Positions 10,361 to 55,434 of a stretch of DNA of 64,000 nucleotides are shown here, one piece after another. The notes below the pieces were generated by a model. It did not search any database and was not told the origin of the DNA. It saw nothing but the letters and a program-made list of their open reading frames with translations. The translations under genes and the position numbers were made by a program. The DNA is from an uncultured Gammaproteobacteria bacterium. Its GTDB lineage: Bacteria > Patescibacteriota > Patescibacteriia > UBA9934. Within the stretch, counting starts at the first letter, position 1. Each line of letters starts with the position of its first letter. The stretch is taken from positions 103,419-167,418 of the forward strand of contig CAYHFQ010000001.1 in the NCBI GenBank assembly GCA_964355955.1, given 5' to 3'.

Positions 10361-10480
10361 TTACCAGCTGGCCTATTTTGGGCTTGTCACTGCGTCGACT
10401 TCTTCGTCTTAGCGCAAACTAAGCCTCAAAAGCTCTCCTTGCTCCGCACCCAAACTAGTCGCAGCTGGATAAGTTTTAAT
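10361..10480. repeat. Family C intergenic repeat, copy 1 (terminal inverted repeats)
   Basis: Shares a 5' block GGCCTATTTTGGGCTTG..ACTGCG and a 3' block GCACCCAAACTAGTC with 60140-60262. Flanked by the 16 bp inverted repeats AAAACTTACCAGCTG / CAGCTGGATAAGTTTT. Confidence 0.6.
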
Positions 10481-14269: not shown

Positions 14270-14321
14270 CTGTCTTTGCGAGGAGACCGACGACGAAGCA
14301 ATCTTGGTCTATCGCTAGCCA

Positions 14322-14480
14322 CTCGGGTCGCTCGCAACCGCCATGTCTCCTCTTCCTAGCTGCGCCTCGTCAACCGTGCCAGCTGGCTCACCTCGTCTGA
14401 CTCGGGGGCTGGCACAGGGCCGAGGCTGGCGTCGTCAGAGGAGACATGGCAGTCGCTCGCTCCTACAAGGCTCAGGCTCA
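14322..14480. repeat. Family A structured intergenic repeat, copy 1
   Basis: About 160 bp element with conserved core CCTCGTCAACCG.GCCAGC.G.CTCACCTCGT.TGACTCGGG.GCTGGC.CAGGGCCGAGGCTGGCGTCGTCAGAGGA flanked by GTCGCTCGC. An internal 13 bp inverted repeat CCATGTCTCCTCT / AGAGGAGACATGG. Four copies in the window. Confidence 0.7.
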
Positions 14481-14537
14481 CTAATGATTTAATCTACCGA
14501 CTACCAACTACAATCTACCAACTTTTGAATACTTTAT

Positions 14538-17604: not shown

Positions 17605-18091
17605 TCAACGCTTCGTGCTGGTCGATGCGGCTCGCAGCAGCTCGTTGTACAGCGGCCGCAGGTCACCTCGGGCTTGCAGCAAGTAGACGTGCAGGTCGCA
17701 CAGCTGATACCGGTCGTGCCACGCTTCGAGCTCATCCAGGGCTGCACCAGCCGGAGTCTTGATGGCTGTTGTCACCACTACCGCGACAATGCCAACCGCC
17801 TGACAACGTCGCACCTCCGTCGCCACCACCTCAGCGTTGATCGAAGTCAGTTCAAGGAAGACTACCTGCGGCTTGGTCTTCTCCTCGCCGAGCGGTATGG
17901 GCTTGTCTGGTTCGCTCGAGCGGTCCATCACCTGCAACCAGCCGTTCTGCGGCAAAGTTTCGTAGCGAGCGGTCAGGACTACCGGCGTCGAGTACGTCAC
18001 GATGAAGAAGCGGATGGGCTCGGTCTTGAGCAGGTTGACCAGCAGCGGCAAGAAGTCGTGAGCAAAGGCGAGAGTAAAAGGCTTGGAGGAC
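17605..18091 (-). CDS. Hypothetical protein Y (GC-rich cassette)
   Basis: ORF from probable ATG at 18089-18091 (MSSKPFTLAFAHDFLPLLVNLLK...). Co-directional with X, separated by ~130 nt. GC roughly 57% versus ~48-50% in flanking genes. Confidence 0.5.
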
Positions 18092-18227
18092 ATGGGGACT
18101 CCTGTTCGGTTGTGCATCTCGCGAATTACGAGACTAAACAATATACCAAAAATCCCCACTTTCGTCAATCTTCTAGTCGCGGTATACTGTTTAGGAAATT
18201 CGTTATTCACTGGCCGAAATACCGTCT

Positions 18228-19091
18228 ATGAAGATTAGAAAAGCTATCATTCCAGTGGCAGGAATGGGAACAAGATTCCTTCCAGCTACCAAAGCCCAAC
18301 CAAAAGAAATGCTGCCGGTCGTGGATAAGCCAGTCATTCAATACATCGTGGAAGAAGCCGTAGCTGCCGGCATTGAAGAGATTATTTTCGTTACCGCCAT
18401 CGGTAAGCAGGCACTCGAGAATCACTTTGACCGCAACTTCGAGCTCGAATATCGCTTGGAACAAAAAGGCAAACTCAAAGAACTCGAAGCCATTCGCGAG
18501 GTTGGCAAGCTCGCCAAGTTCGCCTTTGTCCGCCAGCAAAAGCCAATGGGTGACGGTCATGCTTTACTCTCCGCCGCCCCTTTTGTCGGTGCTGACGAAG
18601 CCGTGGCTGTGCTCTTCGGTGACGATATTATTACTGGGAAGGTTCCAGCTATCGGCCAGTTAATCGCCACCTACGAAAAATACGGCGACCCTGTCATCGC
18701 CATCCAAGAAATCCCCCGCGACCAAGTTTCCCGCTACGGCGTCATTGGTGGCGTCGAGCTCGATGCTTCTACCTGGCAAATTGACCGCTTTGTGGAAAAG
18801 CCAAAAGTCGAAGAAGCCCCAAGTAACCTAGCCGCTGTTGGTCGCTACATTATCACTCCCGAAATTCTGCGCCGCTTAGAAACTCAAACGCCAGGGAAAG
18901 ATGGTGAAATTCGTCTAGCTGATGCTTTCGAGGCTCAATTGGCCGACAATCGTCCGCTCTACGGCTGCAAATTTGCCGGTCGTCGCTACGACTGTGGCAA
19001 CAAACTCCAATTCATCATTGCCCAGATCGAGCTCGGCCTCACCCATCCCGAAGTCAGTGCAGACTTAAAGGAATATCTAAAGTCGCTCTAA
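18228..19091 (+). CDS. galU: UTP--glucose-1-phosphate uridylyltransferase
   Basis: N-terminal AIIPVAGMGTRFLPATKAQPKEMLPVVDKPVIQY signature of GalU. Confidence 0.9.
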   Translation: MKIRKAIIPVAGMGTRFLPATKAQPKEMLPVVDKPVIQYIVEEAVAAGIEEIIFVTAIGKQALENHFDRNFELEYRLEQKGKLKELEAIREVGKLAKFAFVRQQKPMGDGHALLSAAPFVGADEAVAVLFGDDIITGKVPAIGQLIATYEKYGDPVIAIQEIPRDQVSRYGVIGGVELDASTWQIDRFVEKPKVEEAPSNLAAVGRYIITPEILRRLETQTPGKDGEIRLADAFEAQLADNRPLYGCKFAGRRYDCGNKLQFIIAQIELGLTHPEVSADLKEYLKSL

Positions 19092-19092
19092 T

Positions 19093-20481
19093 ATGAATGC
19101 TAAACGTCTTGCCTCGGGCTTACTTTTATCCAGCCTCCTACTAACATTAGGTATCGGTTGTAGTGGCAAAGACGCGGCCAGCAGTATGCCGGAGGTAAAA
19201 CTTACTTATTGGCGTACTTTTGATAATAGCGACACCATGAGCGACATCATTACCGCCTACACTACACTCCATCCGAACGTCAGTATTGACTACAAAAAAT
19301 TGCGCAGTGACGAATACGATAATGCTCTTTTGCGTGCCTTTGCCGACGGTGCTGGCCCCGATATATTCTCCGTCCACAATAGCGCCATTGGCCAATACCA
19401 AAGCCTCCTTCTCCCTGAACCGGCCACTACCACCATTCCTTACGCTGAAATTCAAGGCACACTCCGCAAGCAAACTGTGGTCATTACTAAGGTTTTGCCG
19501 ACTGTCAGTATTAAGACGCTCAAGAGTGACTTTGTCGACACTGTAGCTGAGGACGTTATTTTCCCTTATCAGCCAGATCCTAAAGTTGCGGCTGAGGACC
19601 GGATTTATGGTTTGCCTTTGTCTGTCGACAGCCTTGCTCTGTATGCTAACAAAGATTTATTAAATGCGGTTAATATTCCTGCGGCTCCAGTTAACTGGCA
19701 AGAATTTCATGATGACGTTGTAAAACTCACAAAACTCGACAGTACTGGCAAAATTATCCAGTCTGGGGCTGGTTTTGGTACCAGTAAAAATGTTAATCGG
19801 GCGGTGGATATTCTTTCTGTGCTCATGATGCAGAACGGGGCCAACATGATTGACGACCGTGGCCGGGTGGCTTTCCAGACTGTACCAACTGGTACCGCTC
19901 AAGGACTTTTCCCAAGTCTTGATGCCACTACTTTCTATACCGACTTTGCTAACCCAACTAAGGATGCTTACACTTGGAACGAATCTTTCCCGTCATCTTT
20001 TGATGCCTTCACGGCTGGCCAAACTGCTTTTTATCTTGGCTACAGCTATGATTTGCCGCTTATTCGGACCGCGGCTCCAAAATTAAACTTCACCATTAAT
20101 AATCTGCCACAAATTCAGAATGGGCGGGAAGTGAATTATCCAAACTACTGGGTGGAAGGTGTTTCGAAAGATACCGAGAATGCCGATTGGGCCTGGGATT
20201 TTATTAATTTTGCCACCCGCAAAGAAAATGTCACCTCCTATTTAACCAAAGCTCAAAAGCCAACCGCTCTCCGTTCACTCATTAGCACTCAACTTGATAG
20301 CGAAGACCTAGGCGTCTTTGCTTCTCAACTTTTACTGGCTAAAAGCTGGTACCACGGTAAGGATACAGCCGCTATGGAAAAGGCTATGAACTCCTTCATC
20401 GACGCTATTCTCCTCGGTACCACGGATCCAACCTCTGCTATCGAGACCACCGCCCGTGTTGTCTCACAAACTTACGACTAG
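19093..20481 (+). CDS. ABC-transporter extracellular solute-binding lipoprotein (family 1, sugar-type)
   Basis: Lipobox LTLGIGCSG. About 460 aa with an SBP-like pattern. Confidence 0.65.
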   Translation: MNAKRLASGLLLSSLLLTLGIGCSGKDAASSMPEVKLTYWRTFDNSDTMSDIITAYTTLHPNVSIDYKKLRSDEYDNALLRAFADGAGPDIFSVHNSAIGQYQSLLLPEPATTTIPYAEIQGTLRKQTVVITKVLPTVSIKTLKSDFVDTVAEDVIFPYQPDPKVAAEDRIYGLPLSVDSLALYANKDLLNAVNIPAAPVNWQEFHDDVVKLTKLDSTGKIIQSGAGFGTSKNVNRAVDILSVLMMQNGANMIDDRGRVAFQTVPTGTAQGLFPSLDATTFYTDFANPTKDAYTWNESFPSSFDAFTAGQTAFYLGYSYDLPLIRTAAPKLNFTINNLPQIQNGREVNYPNYWVEGVSKDTENADWAWDFINFATRKENVTSYLTKAQKPTALRSLISTQLDSEDLGVFASQLLLAKSWYHGKDTAAMEKAMNSFIDAILLGTTDPTSAIETTARVVSQTYD

Positions 20482-20558
20482 GTAACTAAAAATTCACGTC
20501 TCGGCCGCACCCAGCGTCCGGGACGTGAATTTTTATTTCTGGTATACTTCCTACCAGT

Positions 20559-21089
20559 ATGATTGCCATTCGCAAATCTCTCCTCGCTTTAATCCTCGGC
20601 TTTACCTTGGCTACCGGCTTGTTCGGCTTCACGCCACCGGCTAAAGCCATCACTATCGATGGCGAATACACTAAGATCACCCAACTCGGCCTCATCTTCG
20701 CCAACGTCTGCTCCGTAGCTAGACCAGATAACGGCACCGATCCTTGTGCTTGTCGCGGCCAAGGACTCTGCACTGTGGATAACATTCTGCAAGTCATTGT
20801 CAACGTTAGCTACCTCATTCTCGCCCTCAGCGGTTCAGCTGCCCTAATCGCTCTCGTCTACGGCGGCCTCGAATGGGTCATTTCCGCCGGTAATCCCGAA
20901 CGTGTTAAACGCGGCAAAGATGCTTTGAGCGGCGCCGCCATTGGTCTTGCCATCGTCTTTGGTGCTTATGTCGCCATCAACCTCCTCATCAGCGTTCTAA
21001 ATAGCGGCAATATACCCACCACTAACCTCGAAACAACCATCGGTAACGGCGCAGATCAAACTATCACTACTGATACTTCAACACCCTAA
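20559..21089 (+). CDS. VirB2/TrbC-like (T4SS pilin-like) small secreted membrane protein, paralog 1
   Basis: Signal peptide, variable mature region, then a conserved C-terminal helix-loop-helix: LILALSGSAALIALVYGGLEWVISAGNPERVKRGKDALSGAAIGLAIVFGAYVAINLL. Confidence 0.6.
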   Translation: MIAIRKSLLALILGFTLATGLFGFTPPAKAITIDGEYTKITQLGLIFANVCSVARPDNGTDPCACRGQGLCTVDNILQVIVNVSYLILALSGSAALIALVYGGLEWVISAGNPERVKRGKDALSGAAIGLAIVFGAYVAINLLISVLNSGNIPTTNLETTIGNGADQTITTDTSTP

Positions 21090-21090
21090 T

Positions 21091-21474
21091 ATGATTACCA
21101 GACATCAAGCTAAACGTGGCGCCATCATTGTTGCGTACTCTCTAGTCCTACTATTGCCTCTCATTCCAGGTCTGGTTCGTGCTGAAGATACAACCACCGT
21201 CACTCTCTACAACCCACTCGGTATAACCGACGTTCGCGTCATCATTGGTCGCGTCATTAAAGGCATTCTAGGCATTGTTGGATCCCTCGCTTTCGTCATG
21301 TTCATCTACGGTGGCGTACTCTGGATGACGAGTGCTGGTAACGCCGATCGTGTAAAAAAAGGTCAAAGCATCTTGGTCTGGACGGTCCTAGGTCTCGGTG
21401 TAATTTTCTCTAGTTACGCCGCCGTCAACGCTATTCTCAACTCTATCACCACCGGCAGCGTCACAGGAACATAA
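21091..21474 (+). CDS. VirB2/TrbC-like pilin-like protein, paralog 2
   Basis: Conserved block LGIVGSLAFVMFIYGGVLWMTSAGNADRVKKGQSILVWTVLGLGVIFSSYAAVNAIL. Confidence 0.65.
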   Translation: MITRHQAKRGAIIVAYSLVLLLPLIPGLVRAEDTTTVTLYNPLGITDVRVIIGRVIKGILGIVGSLAFVMFIYGGVLWMTSAGNADRVKKGQSILVWTVLGLGVIFSSYAAVNAILNSITTGSVTGT

Positions 21475-21518
21475 CAATGTGCTATAATTAAATTATACAT
21501 TCACCTTAACATTTTACT

Positions 21519-21926
21519 ATGTCGAAAGTCTTCTCACGTCTCGTCATGGGACTTGGTCTCGCTACACTTCTCGTGTTGCCACTCGGCCTCTCCCACATCG
21601 GCTTTGTCCACGTTGCTCACGCCCAACAATTACAAACTAGCGATTTGCTTACCACCGGCTTCGGCGATACCGCTGGCCTTGGTCAAGCAGACTTAAAGAC
21701 GACTATTGGCAACCTCATCCGCGTCATGCTCGGTTTCCTCGGTGTCGTCGCAGTCATCATCATTCTCCTTGGTGGTTTCAAATGGATGACCGCTGGTGGC
21801 AACGACGAGAAAGTGCAAGAAGCTAAGAACCTCATCATCGCTGGTATCATCGGCTTGGCCATCATTCTCTCCGCCTTTGCCATCGCTAGCTTCGTCATCA
21901 GCTCCATCATCGGCGCCACACAGTAA
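21519..21926 (+). CDS. VirB2/TrbC-like pilin-like protein, paralog 3
   Basis: Conserved block LGFLGVVAVIIILLGGFKWMTAGGNDEKVQEAKNLIIAGIIGLAIILSAFAIASFVI. Confidence 0.65.
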   Translation: MSKVFSRLVMGLGLATLLVLPLGLSHIGFVHVAHAQQLQTSDLLTTGFGDTAGLGQADLKTTIGNLIRVMLGFLGVVAVIIILLGGFKWMTAGGNDEKVQEAKNLIIAGIIGLAIILSAFAIASFVISSIIGATQ

Positions 21927-21990
21927 ACCTCAATTTCATTTAGATTCTCGAATGACGGTCGGGCTGCAGTTGGTCTGCAACCTCTCCGCT

Positions 21991-22383
21991 ATGCGAAAAT
22001 TCTTCCTCGCCAGTTTACTGGCTGTTTCTTTGTTAGTGCCTCAGCTTACTTTAGCCGCCGACTCAGCTGCTACTAGCTATGGCTTAGAGTCGAGCGGTGG
22101 TGCCGCTGGTCTTCTCACGAATTCCGCAGAAAATACCAATATTACTACCTTTATCGGCTCGTTCATCATCAAGCCTATTCTCGGCTTGGTCGGACTTGGC
22201 TTCTTCATTCTCATGATCTACGGCGGCGTCCTCTGGATGGCTGCTGGCGGCAACGAAACTATCGTCAAAAAAGCCCAAAGCATCCTCACTAGCGCAGTTA
22301 TTGGTGCCATTATTATCATTGCCGCTTACGCCCTCACCAATGCCGTGCTCAACGCTATCACCGCTGGCAATATCTCTGGTTAA
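21991..22383 (+). CDS. VirB2/TrbC-like pilin-like protein, paralog 4
   Basis: Real start ATG 21991 (MRKFFLASLLAVSLL signal peptide). The track ORF 21796..22383 has a spurious upstream extension that overlaps paralog 3. Conserved block LGLVGLGFFILMIYGGVLWMAAGGNETIVKKAQSIL. Confidence 0.65.
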   Translation: MRKFFLASLLAVSLLVPQLTLAADSAATSYGLESSGGAAGLLTNSAENTNITTFIGSFIIKPILGLVGLGFFILMIYGGVLWMAAGGNETIVKKAQSILTSAVIGAIIIIAAYALTNAVLNAITAGNISG

Positions 22384-22392
22384 ACGCTCAGT

Positions 22393-22809
22393 ATGAAAAA
22401 AATTGCCTACGCTTTTCTAGCCAGTCTACTTCTCCTTCCATCCTTCACTTTCGCTGCTGATCCGCCAGCCACACCATCAACCACCAATAGCTCTATTTAC
22501 AGTTCTGGCCTCAACACCGGCGCTAACGCTGCCTACGACAATGCTCTACCTAACGCGGATCTCCTCGGCGTCATTACCCTTCTCATCAAAGCCGTGCTCG
22601 GTCTTCTCGGTGTCGTCTTCCTCGTGCTCATCATCTACGCTGGCATTCTCTGGCTAACTGCTGCCGGCAACGAAGACCGTGTCAAAAAAGCTCAGGGTAT
22701 TCTCAAGAACGCAGTTATCGGTATCTTCATCGTCATAACTGCTTACGCTATCAGTTATTTCATCCTAACAAATATTTCCAATTCCATGACACAAATTTAT
22801 AGCCCATAA
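22393..22809 (+). CDS. VirB2/TrbC-like pilin-like protein, paralog 5
   Basis: Signal peptide MKKIAYAFLASLLLLPSFTFA. Conserved block LGLLGVVFLVLIIYAGILWLTAAGNEDRVKKAQGILKNAVIG. Confidence 0.65.
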   Translation: MKKIAYAFLASLLLLPSFTFAADPPATPSTTNSSIYSSGLNTGANAAYDNALPNADLLGVITLLIKAVLGLLGVVFLVLIIYAGILWLTAAGNEDRVKKAQGILKNAVIGIFIVITAYAISYFILTNISNSMTQIYSP

Positions 22810-22876
22810 GTACCACTTATCGTCCCTCACACTTCATGTTATAATGCTACTGTCTTAAAAATTTTAACCCTTCGCT

Positions 22877-23266
22877 ATGAAGTTAAAGAACATTCTCGTG
22901 GCTGCGGCGCTCTTCGCCCTGCCCTTCGCTCCAATGCTAGTTACCACAACGCACGCTGCCGGTATCGACGTCACAACGAAGCTTGGCACTGTTGGTAGTG
23001 GAGCTGGTTACTCAGCTCAAACTGCCGACTCACTCACTAATACCATCGGCGTACTTATCCAAACTCTTCTCGGTTTCCTCGGTGTCGTCTTCCTCATCCT
23101 TATCATCTACGCTGGTCTTCTTTGGATGACTGCCGCTGGTAACGAAGATAAAGTTAAGAAAGCCCAGGGCATTCTCATGAGCTCCGTCATTGGCCTCATC
23201 ATCTTGCTCTCCGCTTACGCTATCAGCTACTTCGTCATCAGCAACATTCAAAGCTCCATTCAGTAA
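22877..23266 (+). CDS. VirB2/TrbC-like pilin-like protein, paralog 6
   Basis: Conserved block LGFLGVVFLILIIYAGLLWMTAAGNEDKVKKAQGILMSSVIG. Followed by terminator hairpin AGAGCCTGCGGGCTCTTTTT at ~23284-23303. Confidence 0.65.
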   Translation: MKLKNILVAAALFALPFAPMLVTTTHAAGIDVTTKLGTVGSGAGYSAQTADSLTNTIGVLIQTLLGFLGVVFLILIIYAGLLWMTAAGNEDKVKKAQGILMSSVIGLIILLSAYAISYFVISNIQSSIQ

Positions 23267-23377
23267 ACTCACTTACACACAAAAAGAGCCTGCGGGCTCT
23301 TTTTCGTTGTAAACAAAAAGTGGCCCCGGGAAGTAAATCCCGGGCGCCACGTCTGCCGTACGGTTCTTGCTACTTCA

Positions 23378-23899
23378 TCAACGGCAGGAGATGAAGGAGA
23401 TGCTGCGACTGTTCGGATTGGTCGTGGCCGAGTAGCAGGTCGTCGGCAACTTGGTCGCCTTGATGACGATGGCCAGACCGTTCTCTATCACCGGTGGGAT
23501 GCCGGCGTTGTCGTAGTGGTCGCCATAGGCAGTGATGGCTTCTTGCCCATCCGTGACGCCCACATAGTACTTGTCGCCATAGTGGTCGGAGACCAGTACG
23601 GACGTCATCCGGCCGTTGATCCGCGCCACGATCGGCACCGGTGCCCCGTGGTCCATCTTGAAGACGGTCACGGTATCACACCCGGTGTAGTGCGGTACGA
23701 CCATCCTCACCTCCTTCGGCACCCGCAACATGAAGATGCTAGGGCCGAGCTTGGAGAAGTCAGATGGCTCGACCTGCAAGAGACGGCAGGACCTCTGCTC
23801 GATCGCGATCTGCTGCGTCGGCGACAAGCCGCTGAACTCAGAGGCCTTGATACCACCGACGAGGAACAGAACAAGGGAAAGAATCATCGTAGACTCCAT
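23378..23899 (-). CDS. Secreted hypothetical protein (GC-rich island)
   Basis: Signal peptide MILSLVLFLVGG. GC-rich codon usage. A minus-strand terminator hairpin GGCGCCCGGGATTTACTTCCCGGGGCC plus T-run lies just downstream (23320-23350). Confidence 0.6.
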   Translation of the reverse strand: MESTMILSLVLFLVGGIKASEFSGLSPTQQIAIEQRSCRLLQVEPSDFSKLGPSIFMLRVPKEVRMVVPHYTGCDTVTVFKMDHGAPVPIVARINGRMTSVLVSDHYGDKYYVGVTDGQEAITAYGDHYDNAGIPPVIENGLAIVIKATKLPTTCYSATTNPNSRSISFISCR

Positions 23900-24010
23900 G
23901 GCACTCGGCCAACGGTTGTGAATGGAAGTTATTTTTGCTCGGCTCCTCTCTACCCGTTAAGGGAAAGGACCAAACGCGATGCGCGGGGTGGGCTAGTCCC
24001 CCTTTCTGCC

Positions 24011-24643
24011 CTACTCGACGTTGTCGTCTACAATCTTGGGCGGCGGTGCCGGCTTGTCCTGGGTCTTGACCCCCGTGGACTTGCCGCTCTGCTCGCCCTG
24101 ATTGTTGAGCATCTGCTCCGCCTGGTCCATGGCGTCGAGTGCCTGGGCCGTGCTCAGGTGGCCGATGCCGCCGTAGTAGCCACCGATGCCGTCCGGCCAA
24201 CGGTTGACGCTATTCGCCTGCGCCTCACCGACCGGATCGGACACCCGCTTGATGACGTCGCCGTCGATCGAACAGGTGACGTTGCCGTCGCCCTCCAAGC
24301 TCTTGAAGCAGGTCTTGTAGGCTTCGAGGTGCGCCTCAACCTCCAGCTCGTGCTTCTTCTGATCGAACGTCTGTTCGTTCAGCGCCAGCAACTGGTCGGT
24401 CTCGGCCTGGGTGACCTGGACGTTCGCCAACGTGGTCTTCACGTTGTTGTCCGTCAGAGCGGTCAGGGCCTTGACCCCAATGCAGACCGTCCGCGGGGTC
24501 GTCGCTCCGTTCACTCCGTCCACCACCAACTTGGTGTGGCCGAAGGGCGGGCAGTCGATGTCCGAGTGGACGTTGATGTTGGCGTCCACGAGGGTGATGG
24601 GCTCGGCCGCGAGGGCCAGGGAAAGTGCGAGTGAAAGGATCAT
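24011..24643 (-). CDS. Secreted hypothetical protein (GC-rich island)
   Basis: Likely start ATG 24641-24643 (MILSLALSLALAAEP), a signal peptide similar to that of the neighbouring 23378..23899 product. Four Cys residues (C29, C52, C110, C123) in the mature region. Confidence 0.55.
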   Translation of the reverse strand: MILSLALSLALAAEPITLVDANINVHSDIDCPPFGHTKLVVDGVNGATTPRTVCIGVKALTALTDNNVKTTLANVQVTQAETDQLLALNEQTFDQKKHELEVEAHLEAYKTCFKSLEGDGNVTCSIDGDVIKRVSDPVGEAQANSVNRWPDGIGGYYGGIGHLSTAQALDAMDQAEQMLNNQGEQSGKSTGVKTQDKPAPPPKIVDDNVE

Positions 24644-24817
24644 TACAGTCTCTTGGTGAATGGCCAAAGCGGCCAGTTGGTGAGGTATCGCCGCCTATTT
24701 CCTCGGGAATCGAGGCTTTTGACGGACCTAGTAATATAGCAAAAAAACTGCCTTTTGTCAATCACTCACCAACTTTCTTGGCTCTAATTAGCCACAATTT
24801 AGCACTTAATCTGAAGC

Positions 24818-24849
24818 TCTCCCCCAGCCATGGGGAAGTTGGAGGGGGC
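24818..24849. repeat. Palindromic ~33 bp element, intergenic copy (reverse orientation)
   Basis: CTCCCCCAGCCATGGGGAAGTTGGAGGGGGC is the reverse complement, with one change, of the element found inside five CDSs (31473, 45264, 57747, 59425, 62764). Confidence 0.7.
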
Positions 24850-25037
24850 TTTTAGTAACTTCGCAAAGTCAAAACAGCTGGACAAAAACCCAAAAATATG
24901 CTAAATTTCCCGGTCAGCAAACTGCAAATTTGCTGCCGTTTCCCCGTTTTTTCACAACGACGAACCCATTCCGGGCCCACCGTCTTCAAGTTAGTTAACG
25001 TCCACAACGCCCTCCAAAGGGCATTACAGGAGCCATC

Positions 25038-27119
25038 ATGGCCGCCAAATTTGACGAACTCTCCCGCGACATCGACCTCAACCTCAACCAGAGGGGGTTC
25101 GACTCCACTCTGCACAGCATCAAGAACAAGGAGGGTAACCTCGTCCTCGACGCCATCGGCGAAACTGCCGTGGAAAACGTCATGCATGAGGTGGCCACTT
25201 CCCTCGACGCAACCGAGATCATCAAGCTCGGAACCGTCACGGACCTCCTCCTGGCGCTCATTTTGGCTCTGCCTGACGTCAGCCGCAAGTACCTGGCCAA
25301 CTTGCTCGCCAAGCAGGTGAAGAAGGTCCTGAGCGACAAGTCCCTCGTCTCCGACGTGACGGCTGCTATGCTGATCGAAGCCCTGGATCAGGGTAACGCC
25401 ATGGTCATGACCATCCTCGACAACGCTGGTCTGCAGCCCGAGGACATGCGGGCCGCGTTGCTCGACAAGTTCAGCGTGGACATCAAGGAACTCAAGGTCT
25501 GGTTGGCCGGCAAGCTCCCCGCCATCATCGGCGGTCACAGCAGCGGCGGAACCGACCCAGGTCACGACACCAGCCACGGCCCCACCGCGGTTGCCGTCGC
25601 CGCCCCGGTCCTCAACCGCCACCGGGCACAGTTGAATGGCCGCTTGGACATCATGAAGGGTTGGGATAGCCCTGTGCAGGACCTGCTGACCGCCCTGCAA
25701 AATGGTGCAGCTATCGAGGCCCATGGTGACCCGAGCAAGCTTGATGGTACGCCCCTGCCCAAAGACCAACGTCAATGGCTCGGTCTCGCTCATGGCTTCG
25801 TCAAGGGAATCGAGATCATGGTGGAAGATGACGGAGCCCGTGCGACCCTAAAAGCGTCGCTCGAGCAGCTCATCGCCAAGGGCGTGACCAAGGAAGAGTT
25901 GAGTGCCAACCCGCTCGACAAAGCCGGTCACTTCATCCACGGCGTGGTGAAAATCGGTCACAGTGACAAAATGACCGCCATCCTTGACCGGGCGGACGAA
26001 GCCATCGACCTGACAGAGGCCAGGGCTCACCTGCGCCGCTTCATGGGTAAGGACAAACCCACTGTCATCATCGACGTCCCGGAGAAAGACGCCGACGGTA
26101 ATGTAATCGTCCTGTCCAAGGAACAGCAGGTGGAGCGTAAGAAGGAAGCAGAAGAAAAGCGGCTGGCCAACCGCACCAAGTTCGAAGTTGTCACTGAAGA
26201 GGCAGAGGCTTGGAGCAGGTGGGGTCTCAAAAAGATCAAGCAGGCAGTCGGCATCTACGTTGGCAGTGCTGTGACCATCTGCCTGGTCGCCACCGTCGAT
26301 ACCTTCCAGACCCATCTCCTGGAAGGCTGGCTCGCCATTGCGCACAACGTGGTGTTGGGTCTGGCCGTCTGCGGCCTGTTCACGAGTTCCATCGTGTTGA
26401 TCATCGCCCGTCTCGGGCTCTCGGTTCTCGACGCACCGCTGAAGGTCATCGCCAAGTTCATCAAGACGATACCCGGCCAGGAAGACTTCACGTTTGAGGA
26501 TGCCCCCATCTTCAAGCAGGCCAACCTCATCACCATCGTCGTCTTCGGGCTCGGGGTGCTGTTCACGGTTATCGCCATCTTCTGCGCCGTGGGCGGAGGT
26601 TCCGTCATGCTGCCCATCCTGGCCATCCTCGGAGTCTTCTCCTTGGGTGCTTGGGGCGAGCTACAGAAACGTTTCTTCCATGCCAAGTGGTCGGGGCACG
26701 CTCCGGCTGCTGGTCATGATGCTCATCCGACAGCTCCGGCTGGAGGCGGACACGCTCATGATCCTGGTGAGGAGCGCAAGCTCCAGAAGGCAGAGGTCAA
26801 CTTCCTCACCGGACTCAAGGTGTTCTACGTCTTGATGGCTGTGTTCTTCGGAACTCTGATCATCACCGGTGTAGTGACTGCGGGTTACCGCTACCACCAA
26901 ACAAGTCTGGATAAGGCAGCAGCCGCCGAAGTCACAGTCACCACGGAGCGCACCGCGGACTGCGCCGAGGTCACGGCCACTCTGACCAAGTGGGCCGGCG
27001 TGTGGAACGTCAAGAACAACTACCCGGATGAAGGGAGTCGGTTCAGCCACATGTGCGAAGAGACACAGAGCGAGAAGATCGGAACCGCTTGCGCCAAGCA
27101 GGCCTCTCTCTGCCGCTAG
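25038..27119 (+). CDS. Large hypothetical membrane protein (693 aa; ~400 aa soluble N-terminal region, five predicted TM helices, Cys-rich C-terminal tail)
   Basis: Long ORF with GC-rich third positions. TM helices around IYVGSAVTICLVATV, VVLGLAVCGLFTSSIVLIIARL, ITIVVFGLGVLFTVIAIFCAV, MLPILAILGVFSLGAWG and VFYVLMAVFFGTLIITGVV. Antisense ORFs (24852..25793 and others) are taken as GC-driven artefacts. Confidence 0.6.
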   Translation: MAAKFDELSRDIDLNLNQRGFDSTLHSIKNKEGNLVLDAIGETAVENVMHEVATSLDATEIIKLGTVTDLLLALILALPDVSRKYLANLLAKQVKKVLSDKSLVSDVTAAMLIEALDQGNAMVMTILDNAGLQPEDMRAALLDKFSVDIKELKVWLAGKLPAIIGGHSSGGTDPGHDTSHGPTAVAVAAPVLNRHRAQLNGRLDIMKGWDSPVQDLLTALQNGAAIEAHGDPSKLDGTPLPKDQRQWLGLAHGFVKGIEIMVEDDGARATLKASLEQLIAKGVTKEELSANPLDKAGHFIHGVVKIGHSDKMTAILDRADEAIDLTEARAHLRRFMGKDKPTVIIDVPEKDADGNVIVLSKEQQVERKKEAEEKRLANRTKFEVVTEEAEAWSRWGLKKIKQAVGIYVGSAVTICLVATVDTFQTHLLEGWLAIAHNVVLGLAVCGLFTSSIVLIIARLGLSVLDAPLKVIAKFIKTIPGQEDFTFEDAPIFKQANLITIVVFGLGVLFTVIAIFCAVGGGSVMLPILAILGVFSLGAWGELQKRFFHAKWSGHAPAAGHDAHPTAPAGGGHAHDPGEERKLQKAEVNFLTGLKVFYVLMAVFFGTLIITGVVTAGYRYHQTSLDKAAAAEVTVTTERTADCAEVTATLTKWAGVWNVKNNYPDEGSRFSHMCEETQSEKIGTACAKQASLCR

Positions 27120-31076: not shown

Positions 31077-31247
31077 GTCGCTCGCAGTCGGCCTGGACTC
31101 TCTCTTCTCCCCGCAGGGCGAGGACGCGGCGCCGCAGGTCGTCAACCGCGCCAGCCGTCTCACCTCGTATGACTCGGGCGCTGGCACAGGGCCGACCTTT
31201 GCTTGGCGCAAGAGTTCCAGGCCAACCGCTCGCTCCTACAAGGCTCA
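31077..31247. repeat. Family A structured intergenic repeat, copy 2
   Basis: Begins GTCGCTCGC and ends GCTCGCTCCTACAAGGCTCAG. Conserved core CGTCAACCGCGCCAGCCGTCTCACCTCGTATGACTCGGGCGCTGGCACAGGGCCGA. The outer inverted repeat GTCGGCCTGGACTCT / AGAGTTCCAGGCCAAC differs in sequence from the other copies but stays complementary. The 3' end overlaps the HK stop codon. Confidence 0.65.
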
Positions 31248-32300
31248 GACCTTGAGTGGGAGTTTGAGGGTGACAGTGGTGCCGTGGCCGGGGGTACTGA
31301 GCATAGTGACGTCGCCACCGATATCGGCCATGATGGATTGGACAATGGCGAGGCCGAGGCCGGAGCCGCCGGTAGCGCGAGAACGGCTTTGTTCAACGCG
31401 CCAGAAACGGTCGAAGATGTGTTCGAGGTCGGGAGGGGCGATGCCAATACCGGTGTCTGTTACCGTAATAAAGCCCCCTCCAACTCCCCCATGGCTGGGG
31501 GAGGGTTGTTCAGTGCCGATGGTGACGTCGACACTACCGTTTTCTTTATTGTAGATGATGGCATTGCTGATGATGTTGCTGAGCGCGACGTCGAGGAGGT
31601 CGCGGTTGGCTGAGATTTCGATGAGGTGAGGAGTTGGTGCCAGGTGCAGTGTAATGTGATGCGCTTCGGCTAAGGATTTGAGGCGGTCGACGGCGGCGGT
31701 GACGAGATCCACGAGGTTGATGAGGCTTGCGGGGCGAGGTGGGGAGTTGTGCTCGTCGAGTTTGGAGAGCAGGAGAAGATCGGCGACGAGGCGGCGCATG
31801 CGTTCGATTTCTTCCAGGTGGCTGTCGATACGGGCTGTGACGACAGGGTCGGTAGCGACCAGGCGTTCGTTTTCGAAGTCAGTTTTAAGAATGGCGAGAG
31901 GCGTGCGGAGTTCGTGGCTGGCGTCGCTTAAGAATTTCTTTTGGGCGCTGTAGGCGGCGCGGATTGGTTTGATAGTGGAACCAGCGACGAGGTAGCTAAC
32001 TAAGCCGGCGATGATGAGGAGAATGCCGTTGACGACAACGAGAGTCTGGATGAGGTCGGAACGGACGTCTTCCGCAGTGGGCACAGGGACAAGCTCGGAA
32101 CGCTCAAGGTCAAAACGGAGGCCGTGGAAACGGTTTTGGAGGCGCTCGCTAAAAATAGTGCGGGTGACGGCACTCGAAATAATGAGAATGGCGGCGAGGA
32201 CGACAATGTAGAGAATTGTCAGCCAGAAACGAGTAGCGCCTAAGCGTTCCTCAAACGAGACGGTAGCCTTTTCCCCAGACTGTTTGGATGCGTTTGGCAT
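31245..32300 (-). CDS. Sensor histidine kinase (HisKA + HATPase_c), two TM helices
   Basis: H-box SHELRTPL, N-box NAIIYN, G1 box DTGIGI, G2 box GGSGLGL. Probable start ATG 32300, overlapping the response-regulator 3' end by ~50 nt. The palindromic in-frame element EQPSPSHGGVGGGF sits just before the G1 box. Confidence 0.85.
   Translation of the reverse strand: MPNASKQSGEKATVSFEERLGATRFWLTILYIVVLAAILIISSAVTRTIFSERLQNRFHGLRFDLERSELVPVPTAEDVRSDLIQTLVVVNGILLIIAGLVSYLVAGSTIKPIRAAYSAQKKFLSDASHELRTPLAILKTDFENERLVATDPVVTARIDSHLEEIERMRRLVADLLLLSKLDEHNSPPRPASLINLVDLVTAAVDRLKSLAEAHHITLHLAPTPHLIEISANRDLLDVALSNIISNAIIYNKENGSVDVTIGTEQPSPSHGGVGGGFITVTDTGIGIAPPDLEHIFDRFWRVEQSRSRATGGSGLGLAIVQSIMADIGGDVTMLSTPGHGTTVTLKLPLKV
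31473..31505. repeat. Palindromic ~33 bp element inserted in frame in the histidine-kinase gene
   Basis: GCCCCCTCCAACTCCCCCATGGCTGGGGGAGGG. Core hairpin CTCCCCCA-TGGC-TGGGGGAG. Open in all six frames. Read on the minus strand as PSPSHGGVGGG. Confidence 0.75.
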
Positions 32301-32913
32301 AAGCTTTTGGTAACTTCTTACGTAAGTTTTTGAGGTGGACGTCGACAACGTTGCTAAAAGAGTCAAAGAAGCGGTCCCAAACGTGAGTCAGGATGTCCTC
32401 GCGGGTGACGACGCCGCCGAGATTCCGCAGGAAATATTCAAGCAGACCGTATTCGCGCAGAGTTAGTTCGATTGGTTTGTCGTCAACGGTGAGGGTTTGG
32501 CTGCGGGTGTCGAGTTTGAGGTTGCCGAGTGTGAGGACGTCGCTGACGACTTGGGGAGCGCGGCGGAGAATAGTGCGAATGCGGGCGACCAGTTCCTCGA
32601 ACGAGAATGGTTTGACTAAGTAGTCGTCGGCACCGAGGTTGAGGCCTTCGACTTTAGCGTCGATAGCGTCTTTGGCGGTTAAAAAGAGGATGGGCACGTT
32701 GTTTTTAGCGGCACGGAGGTTTTGGCAAACGGTGAAGCCGTCACGGTTGGGCATCATGACGTCGAGAATGATGAGATCGTAACCGCCACCTTTGGCCATA
32801 TTCTCGCCCTCCACACCGTCAAAGGCAAAATCGACCGCATAGCCGCGGGCTTGGAGGCCTAGGACTAGGCCTTTATTCAACTTGGGCTCATCCTCTACTA
32901 CCAATAACTTCAT
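32251..32913 (-). CDS. OmpR-family response regulator
   Basis: Receiver domain (VVEDEP, DLIILDVMMP, K in LTAKD) plus winged-helix trans_reg_C (VWGKGYRL). Confidence 0.9.
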   Translation of the reverse strand: MKLLVVEDEPKLNKGLVLGLQARGYAVDFAFDGVEGENMAKGGGYDLIILDVMMPNRDGFTVCQNLRAAKNNVPILFLTAKDAIDAKVEGLNLGADDYLVKPFSFEELVARIRTILRRAPQVVSDVLTLGNLKLDTRSQTLTVDDKPIELTLREYGLLEYFLRNLGGVVTREDILTHVWDRFFDSFSNVVDVHLKNLRKKLPKAYAKRIQTVWGKGYRLV

Positions 32914-44448: not shown

Positions 44449-44558
44449 GTGCTCGCTTACCCGGCGGTCTTCCGCGCGGGTTCGTAAAAATGTAACTCAC
44501 CCTTGCTCTCGACGCGCCGGCCGCTCGCCTCGCCTGCGCTGCGCTTGGCGGGGGCTCG
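44449..44558. repeat. Family B repeat, copy 1 (abuts 5' end of tRNA-Ser)
   Basis: About 80% identical over ~105 bp to 63827-63936 (TTACCCGGCGGTCTTCCGCGCGGGTTCGTAA...CTCACCCTTGCTC.CGAC.CGC.GGCC...GGCGGGGGCTCG). Confidence 0.65.
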
Positions 44559-45913: not shown

Positions 45914-46070
45914 GTCGCTCGCGACTGGCAGAGCAGTCCTCTTCCTAGCTGCACCTCGTCAACCGCACCAGCCGTCTCACCTCGTATGACTCGGGCGCTG
46001 GCGCAGGGCCGAGGCTGGCGTCGTCAGAGGACCACCCTGCCAGTTGCTTGCTCCTACAAGGCTCAGGCTC
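45914..46070. repeat. Family A structured intergenic repeat, copy 3
   Basis: GTCGCTCGC...conserved core...TTGCTTGCTCCTACAAGGCTCAGGCTC. Outer inverted repeat GACTGGCAG..GTCCTCT / AGAGGAC..CTGCCAGTTGC differs from copies 1, 2 and 4 but remains complementary. Confidence 0.65.
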
Positions 46071-54900: not shown

Positions 54901-55251
54901 AGAGACAAACTGCTCGGTAAGAAATTAGTGGATGTAAAGCCAGTAGATAAGGTGGCGGGTGGAGCAGCAGAAAAGAAGGAACTAAGCGATGAAGAGCGTC
55001 GTGAGATTGTGACTACGCAATTGAGTTTAGGGAGTTTTGGTTATGCTGAGCAGTTGCTAGCAAAATGGTGGCCGGATAATGAGCGTTGGTTCACTGATTC
55101 AGAACTGAGACAGGCGGCGCAAGAAGGGATTGAGAAACAATGGAAGGAAAAGCCGCTCATGAGGTCGATTTTGGAGAAGTTTATTAAAAAGTTTGAACTA
55201 TATACGCCGGTTGAACCGAAGCCCGTGAGGAAGAGTAAGAAGAATATTTAA
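51904..55251 (+). CDS. Very large hypothetical protein (1115 aa), Glu/Lys/Leu-rich helical
   Basis: Uninterrupted 3.3 kb ORF with coding-like periodicity. No catalytic motif recognised. No signal peptide. Confidence 0.6.
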   Translation: MRVILIMFFGMSDFSDRGHDQPVFVDDEEKNERLAAEKALAWLKAILRQTDARMITAESLERALTDAPEAEVADILQQKVTDLMLEVYYSSGNTGQVKGSEDAVQIYLAFLDASTAMTPHEFSAVERLHHELKHHFSQLAMLKPRNKEDEAIIHHLEWVKNKFEAAAGDFAEAKEFVAASVKGDLVGDIKERMAHEADEIAEGRELSLNEQISVDRLRSSLDSVFFATEPDEKEANPESLIKDLHDLGQHKEVIEVISAVNVYVRDFLALPLEDQSYRDVRYFYKLMLNDLVVLSTIYKVLKSEEREVANSLKAIIEEKMPEVEKLVAQFAADKEIQLEDKVDKYKDDFDNCIFNPSEEAIKVFKPAIEGLQNLQREDVVLELLQDQISEAKMFFDKTYDLEWLQKWLEKSHARLELLDSLGDIKISEEEAQLLEELRRCWIEKMQDTQKLIERIIAEDENQVEEAMKLKKAQGSLLGTLGKHAGRLEAGEKAELTAEQGKLLGLLRRHEDKIEMSEVPEQINLSEAEALKLQGRLFLFVLQKNVGELQKTVDLLRIGKRSDLVLQEISEERGRAILSDFVIGSGEHINVWLKINNLTVGERAALQDWQDYVEIKKRMWDSNSARHKAEYEAEQEMNKASRLADFKRWLSGEEEGDKGFAQGCLNDLHGQKQFAAVEQLLQKELRSVGIEGIRDFLVSEDAEKIAAWIKRTKNVLAVFDAISEDYKQPNERAIELLYRQKTQFTLPRMESRLQTVLKGQTKEAVEKKEVDDLAKQLDRALIGDHSGVLNALNYVEKLIAKGQRREIEGSLVWLVEGLNNEVGMNRILESGKAGIALELEKRARVLTELANLDHILNGEEKKIVERYKTLEKPGTQLLKDKLEALRAAETEMLLDKWAHALYDDDANIEFAKSLLYSLHENKAFEDAAWKLRNEVRLQLDDARTAIESGGIEEVNGWLKHQEHLLGIFGVIANFATSDEKAVEKEYTEDAQILEVQIKAKRDKLLGKKLVDVKPVDKVAGGAAEKKELSDEERREIVTTQLSLGSFGYAEQLLAKWWPDNERWFTDSELRQAAQEGIEKQWKEKPLMRSILEKFIKKFELYTPVEPKPVRKSKKNI

Positions 55252-55252
55252 T

Positions 55253-55383
55253 GCTCGCAACCGCCATTTCTCCTCTTCCTAGCTGCGCCTCGTCAACCGC
55301 ACCACCCGTCTCACCTCGTATGACTCGGGCGGTGGCGCAGGGCCGAGGCTGGCGTCGTCATAGGAGAAATGGCAGTCGCTCGC
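55253..55383. repeat. Family A structured intergenic repeat, copy 4
   Basis: Starts right after the stop of 51904..55251. Outer IR CCATTTCTCCTCT / ATAGGAGAAATGG and inner IR GCACCACC / GGTGGCGC each differ from copy 1 by paired complementary substitutions. Confidence 0.7.
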
Positions 55384-55434
55384 TGAAACCAAGTGAAATA
55401 CAAAAGCTCGGCTGAGGCCGGGCTTTTTGGTGTT

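Follow-up and report, generated by a model that had tools for sequence, protein, structure and literature searches.

The 64,000-nt window analysed here (by the window we mean this whole stretch of DNA) contains four copies of family A, a new ~135-base, hairpin-forming intergenic repeat of a small group of uncultured Uhrbacteria. The hairpin unit is 130-136 nt long, to which an optional 19-nt tail is added, and the copies in the window are spaced 9-17 kb apart (Table 1). All four are present where the earlier note had placed them, and a covariance-model scan of the 64-kb window with filters off recovers the same four and no other convincing one; a weak match at 17994-18061 (14.9 bits) was rejected, as it lies in coding sequence and its fold is unlike that of family A. 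The 20-nt core CTCACCTCGTNTGACTCGGG occurs four times in the window, against 0.02 occurrences expected by chance. The tail has three matches in the window, all at copies 1-3, and we rejected it as an independent repeat or target, since within the window it is seen only beside family A hairpins.

The copies are discrete elements and not duplicated flanking genes, and they lie at gene ends, as had been claimed: the copy 2 tail includes a stop codon, the copy 3 tail touches one, and copy 4 starts one base past the TAA stop (55249-55251) of gene 51904-55251. Copy 2 has an extra 20-nt hairpin within one arm, and its site is the positional orthologue of locus L047; copy 3, at the positional orthologue of locus L038, accounts with its tail for most of the DNA that separates two minus-strand genes, of polysaccharide synthesis and O-antigen ligase families. 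The heptamer-repeat module next to copy 1 is also joined to family A in several other copies, and the full palindromic form of family H is found at L010:4610-4700. Downstream of copy 4, at ~55403-55430, a G+C-rich hairpin followed by a T-run is terminator-like by eye, although a terminator scan of 55150-55550 reported no terminator-like site.

Table 1. Family A hairpin units, their tails and an adjoining module in the window.
Feature	Coordinates	Strand	Remarks
Copy 1 hairpin unit (GCTCGC...GCTCGC)	14327..14460	- (folded strand = minus)	Model-matched apical core 14347-14446, 115.6 bits
Copy 1 tail module, 19 nt, TCCTACAAGGCTCAGGCTC	14461..14479	-	In the window, only beside family A hairpins
Heptamer-repeat module (CTACCNN)n after copy 1	14494..14522	.	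Half of the separate palindromic family H
Copy 2 hairpin unit, different sub-family	31077..31233	-	Core 31124-31218, 83 bits
Copy 2 tail	31234..31252	-	Holds TGA stop 31245-31247 (minus strand) of histidine-kinase gene 31245-32366
Copy 3 hairpin unit	45914..46051	-	Core 45936-46035, 115.5 bits
Copy 3 tail	46052..46070	-	Final base overlaps stop codon 46070-46072 of gene 46070-47497
Copy 4 hairpin unit, without tail	55253..55383	-	Core 55270-55369, 113.7 bits

GTCGCTCGC, which is the same in nearly every copy, forms the base of the hairpin, where its two occurrences oppose each other as GC / tandem G·A / GC. Above the base comes a lower stem that is variable and co-varies, then a conserved internal loop rich in purines, in which UGACGACGCC faces GCAGCUAGGAA, then two further co-varying helices, and finally a 24-nt apical loop (CCCGAGUCAKACGAGGUGAG) that is nearly invariant while the stems vary; the centre is the best-conserved part of the element. 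Among the paired positions, one freely interchanges G·U, A-U and G-C, and another is an invariant G·U. The earlier note had described GTCGCTCGC-like sequences as flanks of the repeat, which proved incorrect, as they are part of the stem and constant across copies; a target-site duplication was rejected on the same grounds. Although the arms are complementary overall, the hexamer GCTCGC stands at either end as a direct repeat, not an inverted one, and forms G·A mismatches. The flanks of the ~30 copies listed contain no variable direct repeat or target-site duplication, and we found no clean junction between filled and empty sites among the compared genomes, which are 72-90% identical, so that boundaries are blurred.

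The inverted repeats that had been quoted for the four copies are correct, save that copies 2 and 4 contain one or two mismatches. Covariation was measured over 48 distinct copies, drawn from the window and from three genome bins of Uhrbacteria. Core cells are paired in 94.9% of cases, against 80.9 ± 0.7% in shuffles, and in 16 of the 27 pairs both partners have changed. The real alignment has a covariation score of 0.403, which none of 500 shuffles (0.161) reached and which drops to 0.06-0.12 when the partner columns are slid by 1-3. The arms also match their own partners best, with a mean outer-arm duplex of -32.1 kcal/mol for the 5′ and 3′ arms of one copy versus -16.8 between different copies. 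The compensatory base-pair changes are thus beyond chance, as in a structured nucleic-acid element generally, and the proposal of a long hairpin preserved by compensatory substitutions is borne out. The further reading of covariation as a sign of selected secondary structure holds for a maintained fold and fails as proof of RNA: attC, the IS608 ends and other sites that fold as single-stranded DNA behave in the same way.

The strand that folds is the complement of the one quoted in the earlier note. In the inner helices, all 79 wobbles are G·U on the complement, with 0 A·C pairs there, and would be A·C mismatches on the quoted strand; the tandem G·A pairs are likewise on the complement. Stability favours this minus orientation in 50 of 53 copies when RNA parameters are applied and in 49 of 53 under DNA parameters, and the complementary strand of copy 1 folds as RNA with z = -5.7 relative to shuffles. 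Both strands nonetheless fold strongly, at -59 to -70 kcal/mol on average, with a gap of ~10 of 70 kcal/mol. Mutation bias as the source of the wobbles was rejected by reasoning, in that skew-type C-to-T changes on the G-rich strand would give G·T there, the opposite of what is observed. We also rejected a conserved small open reading frame in the core; its sole ATG rests on the one variable loop base, and stem variants lack the GTG start.

Template switching, a known mutational process, can correct quasi-palindromes, and we considered whether it, or gene conversion, could have kept these arms paired in a family that is otherwise decaying junk. Chimeric arms exist, and many of the double changes are inherited sub-family markers, since the same stem variants recur across many copies and genomes. 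Template switching, however, should yield perfect Watson-Crick palindromes rather than G·U pairs, G·A pairs and asymmetric internal loops on one strand, and it explains neither the invariant unpaired loops nor the orientation bias described below. Moreover, the orthologues L009 and L019 have different site-specific lower stems, and each of these still pairs. We regard an unselected pattern as very unlikely.

Family A is represented by at least about 55 canonical copies in the window and the three Candidatus Uhrbacteria genome bins, at roughly 40 distinct intergenic sites with unrelated neighbouring genes. All copies are intergenic and most lie directly after stop codons. Loads reach 25 or more copies per roughly 1-Mb genome, and the counts vary several-fold among genomes; orthologous sites that are filled in some genomes are empty in others or occupied by another repeat. 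The copies are modular: one (L043) is a chimera with arms from two sub-families, four (L044, L017, L030 and L036) have small hairpins nested within them, and there are relatives that have the basal scaffold in common with family A but a different apical domain. Much of the intergenic sequence that we examined consists of stacked, nested hairpin repeats. Where copies occupy orthologous sites, the invariant loops and paired stems are kept even with flanks down to 70-87% identity. This pattern suggests selection on the resident copies, or gene conversion, and would not be predicted for a purely selfish element.

Searches beyond these genomes gave no further copies. A degenerate core pattern had no match in viral contigs and one chance match in JGI metagenome contigs (L048, in a high-GC coding region), and blastn against plasmids and phages returned nothing. 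A Coriobacteriaceae match (L028) was rejected as chance, being within coding sequence with no element around it. Look-ups by exact protein for strain-level empty copy-1 sites gave contigs that either do not differ at copy 1 or break off within the repeat, with no readable polymorphism.

The orientation of family A follows the replication strand. GC skew is 0.2-0.4 over most of the window, and the strand quoted in the earlier note is the G-rich strand for 53 of 53 exact-core copies; it is the C-rich strand that folds in 55 of 55 canonical model matches, and in 58 of 62 when matches of every kind are counted. The G-rich strand carries 62% of the coding length and is therefore the leading strand, so that the folded, C-rich strand is the leading-strand template. 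The neighbouring genes are in tandem ++ (25), tandem -- (15), divergent (5) or convergent (4) arrangement, which mirrors the general gene-strand ratio, and the orientation of family A is set by the replication strand and not by transcription. Two other repeats behave in a comparable manner: 12 of 12 copies of CTCCCCCATGGCTGGGGGAGG, a hairpin family unrelated to family A, are oriented with the skew, and the three window copies of family B are co-oriented in positive-skew DNA; in most copies of both, the C-rich-strand version folds better.

Because orientation is fixed relative to replication and not relative to neighbouring genes, family A most likely acts or moves as single-stranded DNA and not as an RNA gene. 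Of the two possibilities raised in the earlier note, a non-coding RNA or an element of the MITE/REP type, the second fits better, and the first is weakened by the tie to the replication strand, the lack of a detected promoter or terminator, and the unrelated neighbours. The properties that would suit independently transcribed, minus-oriented, paralogous RNA genes, with loops that bind a protein or target, are the strong covariation, in which G·U, A-U and G-C replace one another in RNA-like fashion and one G·U is invariant, the tandem G·A and purine-rich internal loops on one and the same strand, the nearly invariant apical loop amid variable stems, the retention of loops and pairing at orthologous sites, and the RNA fold z-score of -5.7. 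Such genes, though, would all be transcribed head-on to replication, and we found no sigma-70-like promoter or intrinsic terminator in or beside copies 1 and 4. Family A occupies spacers within what are probably operons, with the genes in either orientation, and its 25+ copies per ~1 Mb, nesting, chimeras and site turnover are the behaviour of a mobile repeat. The family is also confined to one narrow clade and lacks an Rfam match: at gathering thresholds Rfam identified just tRNAs and a 5S rRNA, and the sole match to copies 1 and 3 in an E-value search was SNORD22, at chance level (19 bits, cut-off 50). A riboswitch-like tie to particular genes was rejected, as the neighbours are unrelated housekeeping genes. 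Overall, we consider RNA genes an unlikely explanation.

A related proposal is that family A acts in cis within mRNA, as a stable 3′ UTR or operon-spacer hairpin that protects or processes transcripts in the manner of REP, ERIC and Correia elements. Its intergenic positions, mostly right after stop codons, agree with this, as does the strong hairpin formed from either strand. At site A the element lies between a stop codon and a G+C-rich hairpin with a T-run that we read as an intrinsic terminator, and the hairpin downstream of copy 4 is similar, though unreported by the scan. This proposal leaves unexplained the replication-strand lock and the strand-specific fold, as the 25 tandem ++ contexts would place the poorer-folding strand in the mRNA, and a mere stabiliser needs no nearly invariant 24-nt loop. 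We think it quite unlikely as a primary role, and any effects of family A on mRNA ends are probably secondary.

Alternatively, the copies could be host chromosomal elements with replication polarity, that is, folded single-stranded DNA sites present every 15-30 kb and maintained by selection for a function at the fork; they might, for instance, serve in re-priming or restart, or give a DNA translocase a polar signal. The perfect lock to the replication strand, the conservation of loops and structure in place, the strong GC skew in the lineage, and the occurrence there of several unrelated repeat families with the same lock are all consistent with such a function. A host function is harder to reconcile with a family limited to a few related species, with copy numbers that differ several-fold between genomes, with sites that are empty or interchangeable with other repeat families, and with sub-families whose different stems resemble copying bursts. 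We know of no system in which 135-nt hairpins are so used, and consider this explanation improbable.

Several families of bacterial repeats share features with family A, which resembles ERIC, REP or attC elements without belonging to any family as defined. ERIC/IRU, Correia (NEMIS), RUP, Nezha-type MITEs and RPE (reviewed in PMC3184786) are, like family A, intergenic, non-coding, multi-copy, long stem-loops of 100-170 bp with sub-families, and are often co-transcribed at gene 3′ ends. Compared with these, however, family A appears to lack terminal inverted repeats of the usual kind, having direct GCTCGC hexamers instead, and is without target-site duplication; it has a single replication orientation and conserved apical and internal loops, and a related insertion sequence was not found in roughly 0.4 Mb. 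The bcr1 repeat of the Bacillus cereus group is similar in length (~155 bp), in its non-conserved genomic distribution, and in compensatory changes that keep the predicted fold (PMC3184786). It differs by ending in 5-bp direct repeats, forming a two-hairpin cruciform and having documented transcription (PMC3184786), none of which was seen in family A; the literature surveyed reports no replication-strand lock for bcr1, whereas family A has one.

Elements that are processed as single strands offer other parallels. REP and REPIN-RAYT elements are, like family A, extragenic palindromes without target-site duplication; a single-copy HUH enzyme is believed to process them in the form of single-stranded hairpins, and they persist vertically for long periods (PMC3733652, PMC3116915). 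REPs, however, are 20-40 bp, carry a GTAG or CGTC tag and occur mostly as inverted doublets, whereas family A is 130-136 nt, multi-helix, untagged and almost always single; only one head-to-head pair was found, flanked on one side by a gene called DprA-like on its C-terminal sequence and on the other by a second gene, and no RAYT was found near the copies. The ends of IS200/IS605 elements and their non-autonomous derivatives are recognised as folded single-stranded DNA, as proposed for family A, and share an absence of target-site duplication and a strong replication-linked orientation bias (PMC3971601, PMC5027513). [quoted passage not shown] Integron attC sites follow a shared logic in which structure is conserved, stem sequence is variable, and a single strand folds into the functional form (PMC5371416). 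They have R and L boxes, GTTRRRY ends, a variable centre, and cassette arrays beside an integrase, whereas family A has a conserved centre, is dispersed singly every 10-20 kb and has no integrase in view; its GTTGACG is a misfit to GTTRRRY and is not at the base.

No mobilising enzyme was found in the DNA searched. All-against-all blastp of the open reading frames from all loci gave just distant paralogues (25-58% identity), with no high-identity multi-copy reading frame, and Pfam scans of a negative-skew block identified type IV secretion pilins, transporters and a nucleotidyl transferase but no transposase. A tblastn search with IS200 TnpA, a weak test, had no match in roughly 0.4 Mb, and the same roughly 0.4 Mb contains no HUH-type or other transposase or parent insertion sequence that we could find, and no HUH gene near any copy.

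The reading that we favour, and to which we give about an even chance, is of family A as a structured, non-autonomous repeat that passes through a single-stranded-DNA stage at the replication fork. Its conserved loops and stems would be the recognition site of a protein whose gene lies elsewhere in the genome and that would recognise the element as folded single-stranded DNA at or near the fork. The lock to the replication strand could arise by either of two routes. Integration may be strand specific, for instance by joining into the nascent lagging strand; or copies may survive excision or deletion only when the folding strand is on the leading-strand template, which is rarely single stranded. 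The second route is documented in sedentary chromosomal integrons, where folding attC bottom strands belong to the leading-strand template in 25 of 30, limiting excision (PMC5371416), and IS200/IS605 and IS91 elements have a replication-linked orientation bias (PMC3971601).

Several observations weigh against a single-stranded-DNA stage of this kind. Survivorship alone may be too weak to account for a 55/55 lock, with both strands folding strongly; the free interchange of G·U, A-U and G-C, together with the G·A motifs and the one G·U that never varies, is no less characteristic of RNA than of DNA; and there is no candidate enzyme in roughly 0.4 Mb, no target-site duplication, and a polarity opposite to that of IS200/IS605. 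A broader and unlikely possibility is that family A and the D4 family, and perhaps other hairpin families, are of single polarity, with the better-folding strand on the leading-strand template (that is, as nascent lagging-strand sequence), because structured single-stranded DNA would be propagated or used at the fork in a manner not described hitherto. In one form, an unknown enzyme would ligate folded single-stranded DNA into Okazaki-fragment junctions; in another, a host system would need polar hairpin sites. With its invariant loop and attC-like preference for structure over sequence, family A would be the recognition module of either system.

Candidate Phyla Radiation bacteria have tiny genomes and, to our knowledge, almost nothing is known of their mobile DNA or non-coding elements. 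Family A breaks short-read assemblies of these genomes; it also has a practical use as a strand marker that orients contigs with respect to replication. It unites three properties that are rarely combined, namely covariation, a one-strand fold and a complete replication lock. If the lock is due to the mechanism of insertion, it would point to an unknown route of single-strand DNA transposition or capture, and if it is due to selection, family A would be a natural case, outside of integrons, in which replication controls the stability of folded DNA sites.

We recovered all four copies of family A, the ~135-nt intergenic hairpin repeat, where the earlier note had placed them, and they are alignable over ~160 nt; the inverted repeats that it quoted are also correct, except that copies 2 and 4 contain one or two mismatches. 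The window has four occurrences of a 20-nt core, CTCACCTCGTNTGACTCGGG (0.02 expected by chance), and a covariance model run with filters off scored copies 1–4 at 83–116 bits and identified no further convincing copy in the 64 kb. A core scan of one genome per species identified 47 loci, all of which, except for one chance match, come from three bins of Candidatus Uhrbacteria, members of the Candidate Phyla Radiation. Exact-core copies number 28 in LJ_bin-3226 (LJ), 17 in Umea1p2_bin-0579 (Umea), and seven in UBA11707, and the covariance model has 58 matches on the bin loci, diverged ones included. The window derives from a fourth, related genome, and its flanks have ~83% identity to UBA11707 and 72–78% to Umea. 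Core scanning of viral contigs and blastn searches of plasmids and phages revealed no family A, the core scan of the JGI metagenome gave a single chance match inside a coding sequence, and no Rfam family matches at either gathering or permissive thresholds. Short-read assemblies of close strains (contigs L051, L052, L053, and L054) stop ~100 nt past the flanking gene, exactly where the conserved core begins, and the repeat thus fragments assemblies of these genomes.

The proposal that the hairpin is kept through compensatory change is confirmed by core covariation, by own-arm pairing, and by the folding of copy 1 relative to shuffles. Among 48 distinct copies and the 27 pairs of the core structure, 94.9% of cells are paired compared with 80.9 ± 0.7% in shuffles, and 16 of the 27 pairs have changes on both sides. 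The covariation score of 0.403 (versus 0.161) was attained in none of 500 shuffles, and it falls to 0.06–0.12 in all versions with partners slid by 1–3 columns; two core helices are 99–100% paired even though single positions have as many as four pair types. Alignment across sub-families is not possible for the outer arms, on which the main claim of the earlier note rests, and we therefore compared duplex energies of own and foreign arms: 5′ and 3′ arms of the same copy average -32.1 kcal/mol versus -16.8 kcal/mol for arms of different copies, and the own 3′ arm is the top partner among 51 in 27 cases. Against dinucleotide shuffles, the complementary strand of copy 1 folds with z = -5.7 as RNA and -4.3 as DNA, and the quoted strand as DNA with z = -2.2 only.

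The strand quoted in the earlier note is, however, the wrong one for the structure, and we assign the fold to its complement because of wobble pairs, G·A motifs, and stability. In the inner helices, we counted 79 G·U pairs on the complementary strand against zero A·C; at one core pair position 29 copies have G·U, 14 have A-U, and five have G-C, at another 48/48 have G·U, and all of these wobbles become A·C mismatches when read on the quoted strand. The GTCGCTCGC segments, previously described as flanks, belong to the stem: as GCGAGC on the complementary strand they are aligned opposite one another as G-C, C-G, G·A, A·G, G-C, C-G and form a tandem G·A motif, whereas the quoted strand would give T·C/C·T mismatches. 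They are therefore excluded as a target-site duplication, and we observed no variable direct repeat beside the copies that could be one. The junction of lower stem and internal loop (UGA opposite GGAA) has the same strand preference, and the complement is the more stable strand in 50/53 copies with RNA parameters (mean -70.3 versus -59.1 kcal/mol) and in 49/53 with DNA parameters. Non-selective retention of palindromes by template switching is very improbable, as it could not maintain wobbles on one strand only together with unpaired loops.

The family A unit extends from GCTCGC to GCTCGC (130–136 nt). The folded strand has a base of GC / G·A·A·G / GC, a lower stem of 15–20 pairs that varies by sub-family, an asymmetric conserved internal loop (in the main sub-family, UGACGACGCC facing GCAGCUAGGAA), co-varying helices of 6 bp and 8 bp, and an apical region, CCCGAGUCAKACGAGGUGAG plus 3–4 nt, which in the exact-core set varies at a single base only and from which a few diverged copies depart slightly. 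On the folded strand, every copy has in its apical loop (e.g., window 14387-14406) the heptamer GAGGUGA, which is perfectly Shine-Dalgarno-like and whose complement, UCACCUC, is the usual 3′ end of 16S rRNA; this likeness may be chance. Many copies carry a 19-nt tail, TCCTACAAGGCTCAGGCTC, found in the window only with family A, and in some it pairs with a 5′ partner to give a longer hairpin. One copy has a small hairpin inserted within the apical loop, three share a 28-nt hairpin insert beside the core, and one is a chimera with arms of two sub-families. Family A is often fused to the right half of family H, as a result either of insertion of A into H or of joint copying of the composite. The sole REPIN-like doublet is a head-to-head pair directly downstream of a putative dprA (named from C-terminal sequence), which is kept in all three bins.

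Locations of family A and associated features; L numbers designate loci or contigs outside the window that were found by searches.
Feature	Location	Orientation	Description
Family A, copies 1–4	window 14322-14480, 31077-31247, 45914-46070, 55253-55383		
Family B	window 10369-10463, 60159-60255, 63928-63971	direct, all	~110-nt structured repeat, closed by CCAGCTGG...CAGCTGG
Family C structured insert	L009:6555-6739		~170 nt, unrelated to A; MFE -71 to -77 kcal/mol; fills copy-1 spacer in LJ
D4 (CTCCCCCATGGCTGGGGGAGG family)	window 31468-31507, 45260-45299, 57742-57781, 59420-59459, 62748-62787; 24812-24850	last copy inverted	~40-nt hairpin, GCCCCCTCC..CTCCCCCATGGCTGGGGGAGGG, unrelated to A
Small palindrome	window 14272-14303; L021:2085-2115; L008:5760-5790; upstream of L018, L022, L024, L030 copies		~30 nt, (G)TC(A/T)TTGCGAG...CGAAGCAATC, with GCGAAGC
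Family H, heptamer palindrome	L010:4610-4700		(GGTAGNN)n, loop, (NNCTACC)n
Family H half copies	window 14494-14522; after L001, L013, L026, L030, L032, L042, L043 copies		CTACCNN heptamers
Head-to-head pair	L013:2885-3140, L023:1750-1990, L010:6370-6610	head-to-head	canonical copy plus diverged copy (core GCCGAGTCAGACGAGGTATGG)
Scaffold relatives	L018:7760-7905, L026:4625-4800, L046:7800-7970		basal stem and internal loop (UGACGACGC / GCAGCUAGGAA) as in family A, completely different apical domain
Reversed-skew block	window 18000-26000		nucleotidyl transferase, solute-binding protein, six paralogous type IV secretion pilin-like genes (20559-23266)

The central new result is that the orientation of family A is locked to the replication strand. 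Plus-strand GC skew in 2-kb windows is 0.2–0.4 over most of the window regardless of gene direction, with lower values at 1–2 kb, ~16–18 kb, and ~26–28 kb, and negative values (-0.06 to -0.18) at 18–26 kb. The Uhrbacteria loci likewise have strong one-strand skew (0.2–0.4 in most 2-kb windows), independent of gene direction. The quoted strand is the G-rich strand of its locus in 53/53 exact-core copies, and with local skew calculated without the element itself, 58/62 model matches, and 55/55 canonical ones, have the folded strand on the C-rich strand. The four exceptions are the three diverged partners of the head-to-head pair, which is conserved in all three bins and counted as one event, and one scaffold-only relative (at L046). 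About 12 copies are positional orthologues, and even with 40 independent sites the lock has a chance probability of p <10^-11. Because the G-rich strand carries most of the coding sequence, we take it to be the leading strand, which makes the folded strand the leading-strand template, identical in sequence to the nascent lagging strand. Neither composition nor mutation bias explains this polarity: the element has a skew of -0.10 on the G-rich strand and is thus itself C-rich there, and skew-type mutation would place the wobbles on the other strand.

Family A copies sit in intergenic spacers, often almost filling them, next to unrelated housekeeping genes (cysteine desulfurase, ferredoxin, flavoprotein reductase, histidine kinase, polysaccharide synthesis, and O-antigen ligase). 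Neighboring gene pairs (25 tandem on the G-rich strand, 15 tandem on the other, five divergent, and four convergent) parallel the overall 62:38 split of coding length between strands. At one locus in the three bins, family A has a stop codon on one side and, on the other, a G+C-rich hairpin with a T-run after it, read as an intrinsic terminator; copy 4 possibly has the same arrangement, although a terminator scan reported none there, and copies 1 and 4 and their immediate surroundings yielded no promoter-like or terminator-like sites. A pure mRNA stabilizer or processing site would leave the replication lock unexplained, and we regard it as quite improbable. An independently transcribed RNA family is supported by wobbles of the RNA type, by the G·A motifs, by the invariance of the loop, and by the conservation in place, but it is unlikely, since all copies would have to be transcribed head-on to replication with no promoter detected.

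Spacer occupancy varies among the genomes. The 268-nt ferredoxin-to-reductase spacer of copy 1 (window 14270-14537), which several strain contigs (L049 and L050) share at 100% identity, consists of stacked modules (small palindrome, family A hairpin, tail, and heptamer half) and otherwise only of short linkers; in Umea the same spacer has only the small palindrome, and the family C insert of LJ has no Rfam match. The small palindrome recurs beside family A, and in some genomes it is the sole occupant of spacers that contain family A elsewhere. One site has family A in LJ and Umea and lacks it in UBA11707, another has family A in LJ and the heptamer palindrome alone in Umea, and family B at 10369-10463 is in exactly the spacer where the other three genomes have family A. 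There are tRNA genes next to two family B copies. A ~80-nt repeat with 84% identity also lies beside tRNA-Ser (minus; window 44457-44535) and tRNA-Leu (plus; 63835-63913), in one chromosomal orientation despite the opposite tRNA directions.

Copies 2 and 3 have positional orthologues in Umea, yet with lower stems of a different sub-family, and in LJ the lower stems of many copies at unrelated sites are nearly identical, suggesting that copying occurred in a recent burst. In true orthologues (L009/L019 and L013/L023/L010) the loops are invariant and the stems still paired; their apical regions have 80–92% identity versus 70–87% in the mostly coding flanks, and the apical changes seen between orthologues fall in a helix (as in L009/L019). 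This conservation points to constraint on resident copies or gene conversion. Such in-place conservation and the replication lock favor a host polar element acting at forks, but the narrow distribution, varying copy number, and interchangeable sites make that explanation unlikely.

We argue from the one-strand fold, the complete replication lock, the indifference to transcription direction, and the lack of gene association that the determinant is at the DNA level, namely a single strand that folds at the replication fork or close to it. An orientation bias linked to replication has been documented for IS200/IS605, IS607, IS91, and ISL3 (PMC3971601). Family A fails defining tests of every family compared. 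It has no target-site duplications, and although its arms are complementary overall, its terminal hexamers are direct repeats (GCTCGC at both ends), which speaks against a classical MITE; it is far larger than REPs, without a GTAG or CGTC tag or a nearby RAYT; and its single hairpin and reversed polarity do not fit IS200/IS605, whose active strand is the lagging-strand template. In sedentary chromosomal integrons, the folding attC bottom strand belongs to the leading-strand template in 25/30, limiting folding and excision (PMC5371416); family A has this polarity, but its conserved centre and dispersed distribution do not fit attC. Closest in working are the structured repeats of the ERIC, Correia, and bcr1 types (PMC3184786), together with REP and attC, which are recognized as folded DNA (PMC3733652, PMC5371416).

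We favor, with roughly even confidence, the reading that family A is a non-autonomous element recognized as folded single-stranded DNA by a protein that would be encoded elsewhere; we identified no enzyme for it in the ~0.4 Mb examined. Its orientation could be fixed if joining at the fork is strand-specific, or if the copies that survive are those in a 'quiet' orientation.

The lock also holds for at least one other hairpin family, D4, which occurs in the three Uhrbacteria bins too: 12/12 copies are oriented with the skew, with a local skew at the twelfth of only 0.018. The window's single inverted D4 copy falls in the negative-skew block and, together with the reversed skew, suggests that 18000-26000 is an inverted or acquired segment; its pilin-like gene array has internal DNA repeats at 22165-23259. 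All sizeable repeat families in the window are in direct orientation, and for families B, C, and D4 the C-rich-strand version usually folds better. Together with the D4 lock, these patterns raise the possibility that the replication lock reflects a lineage-wide mechanism.
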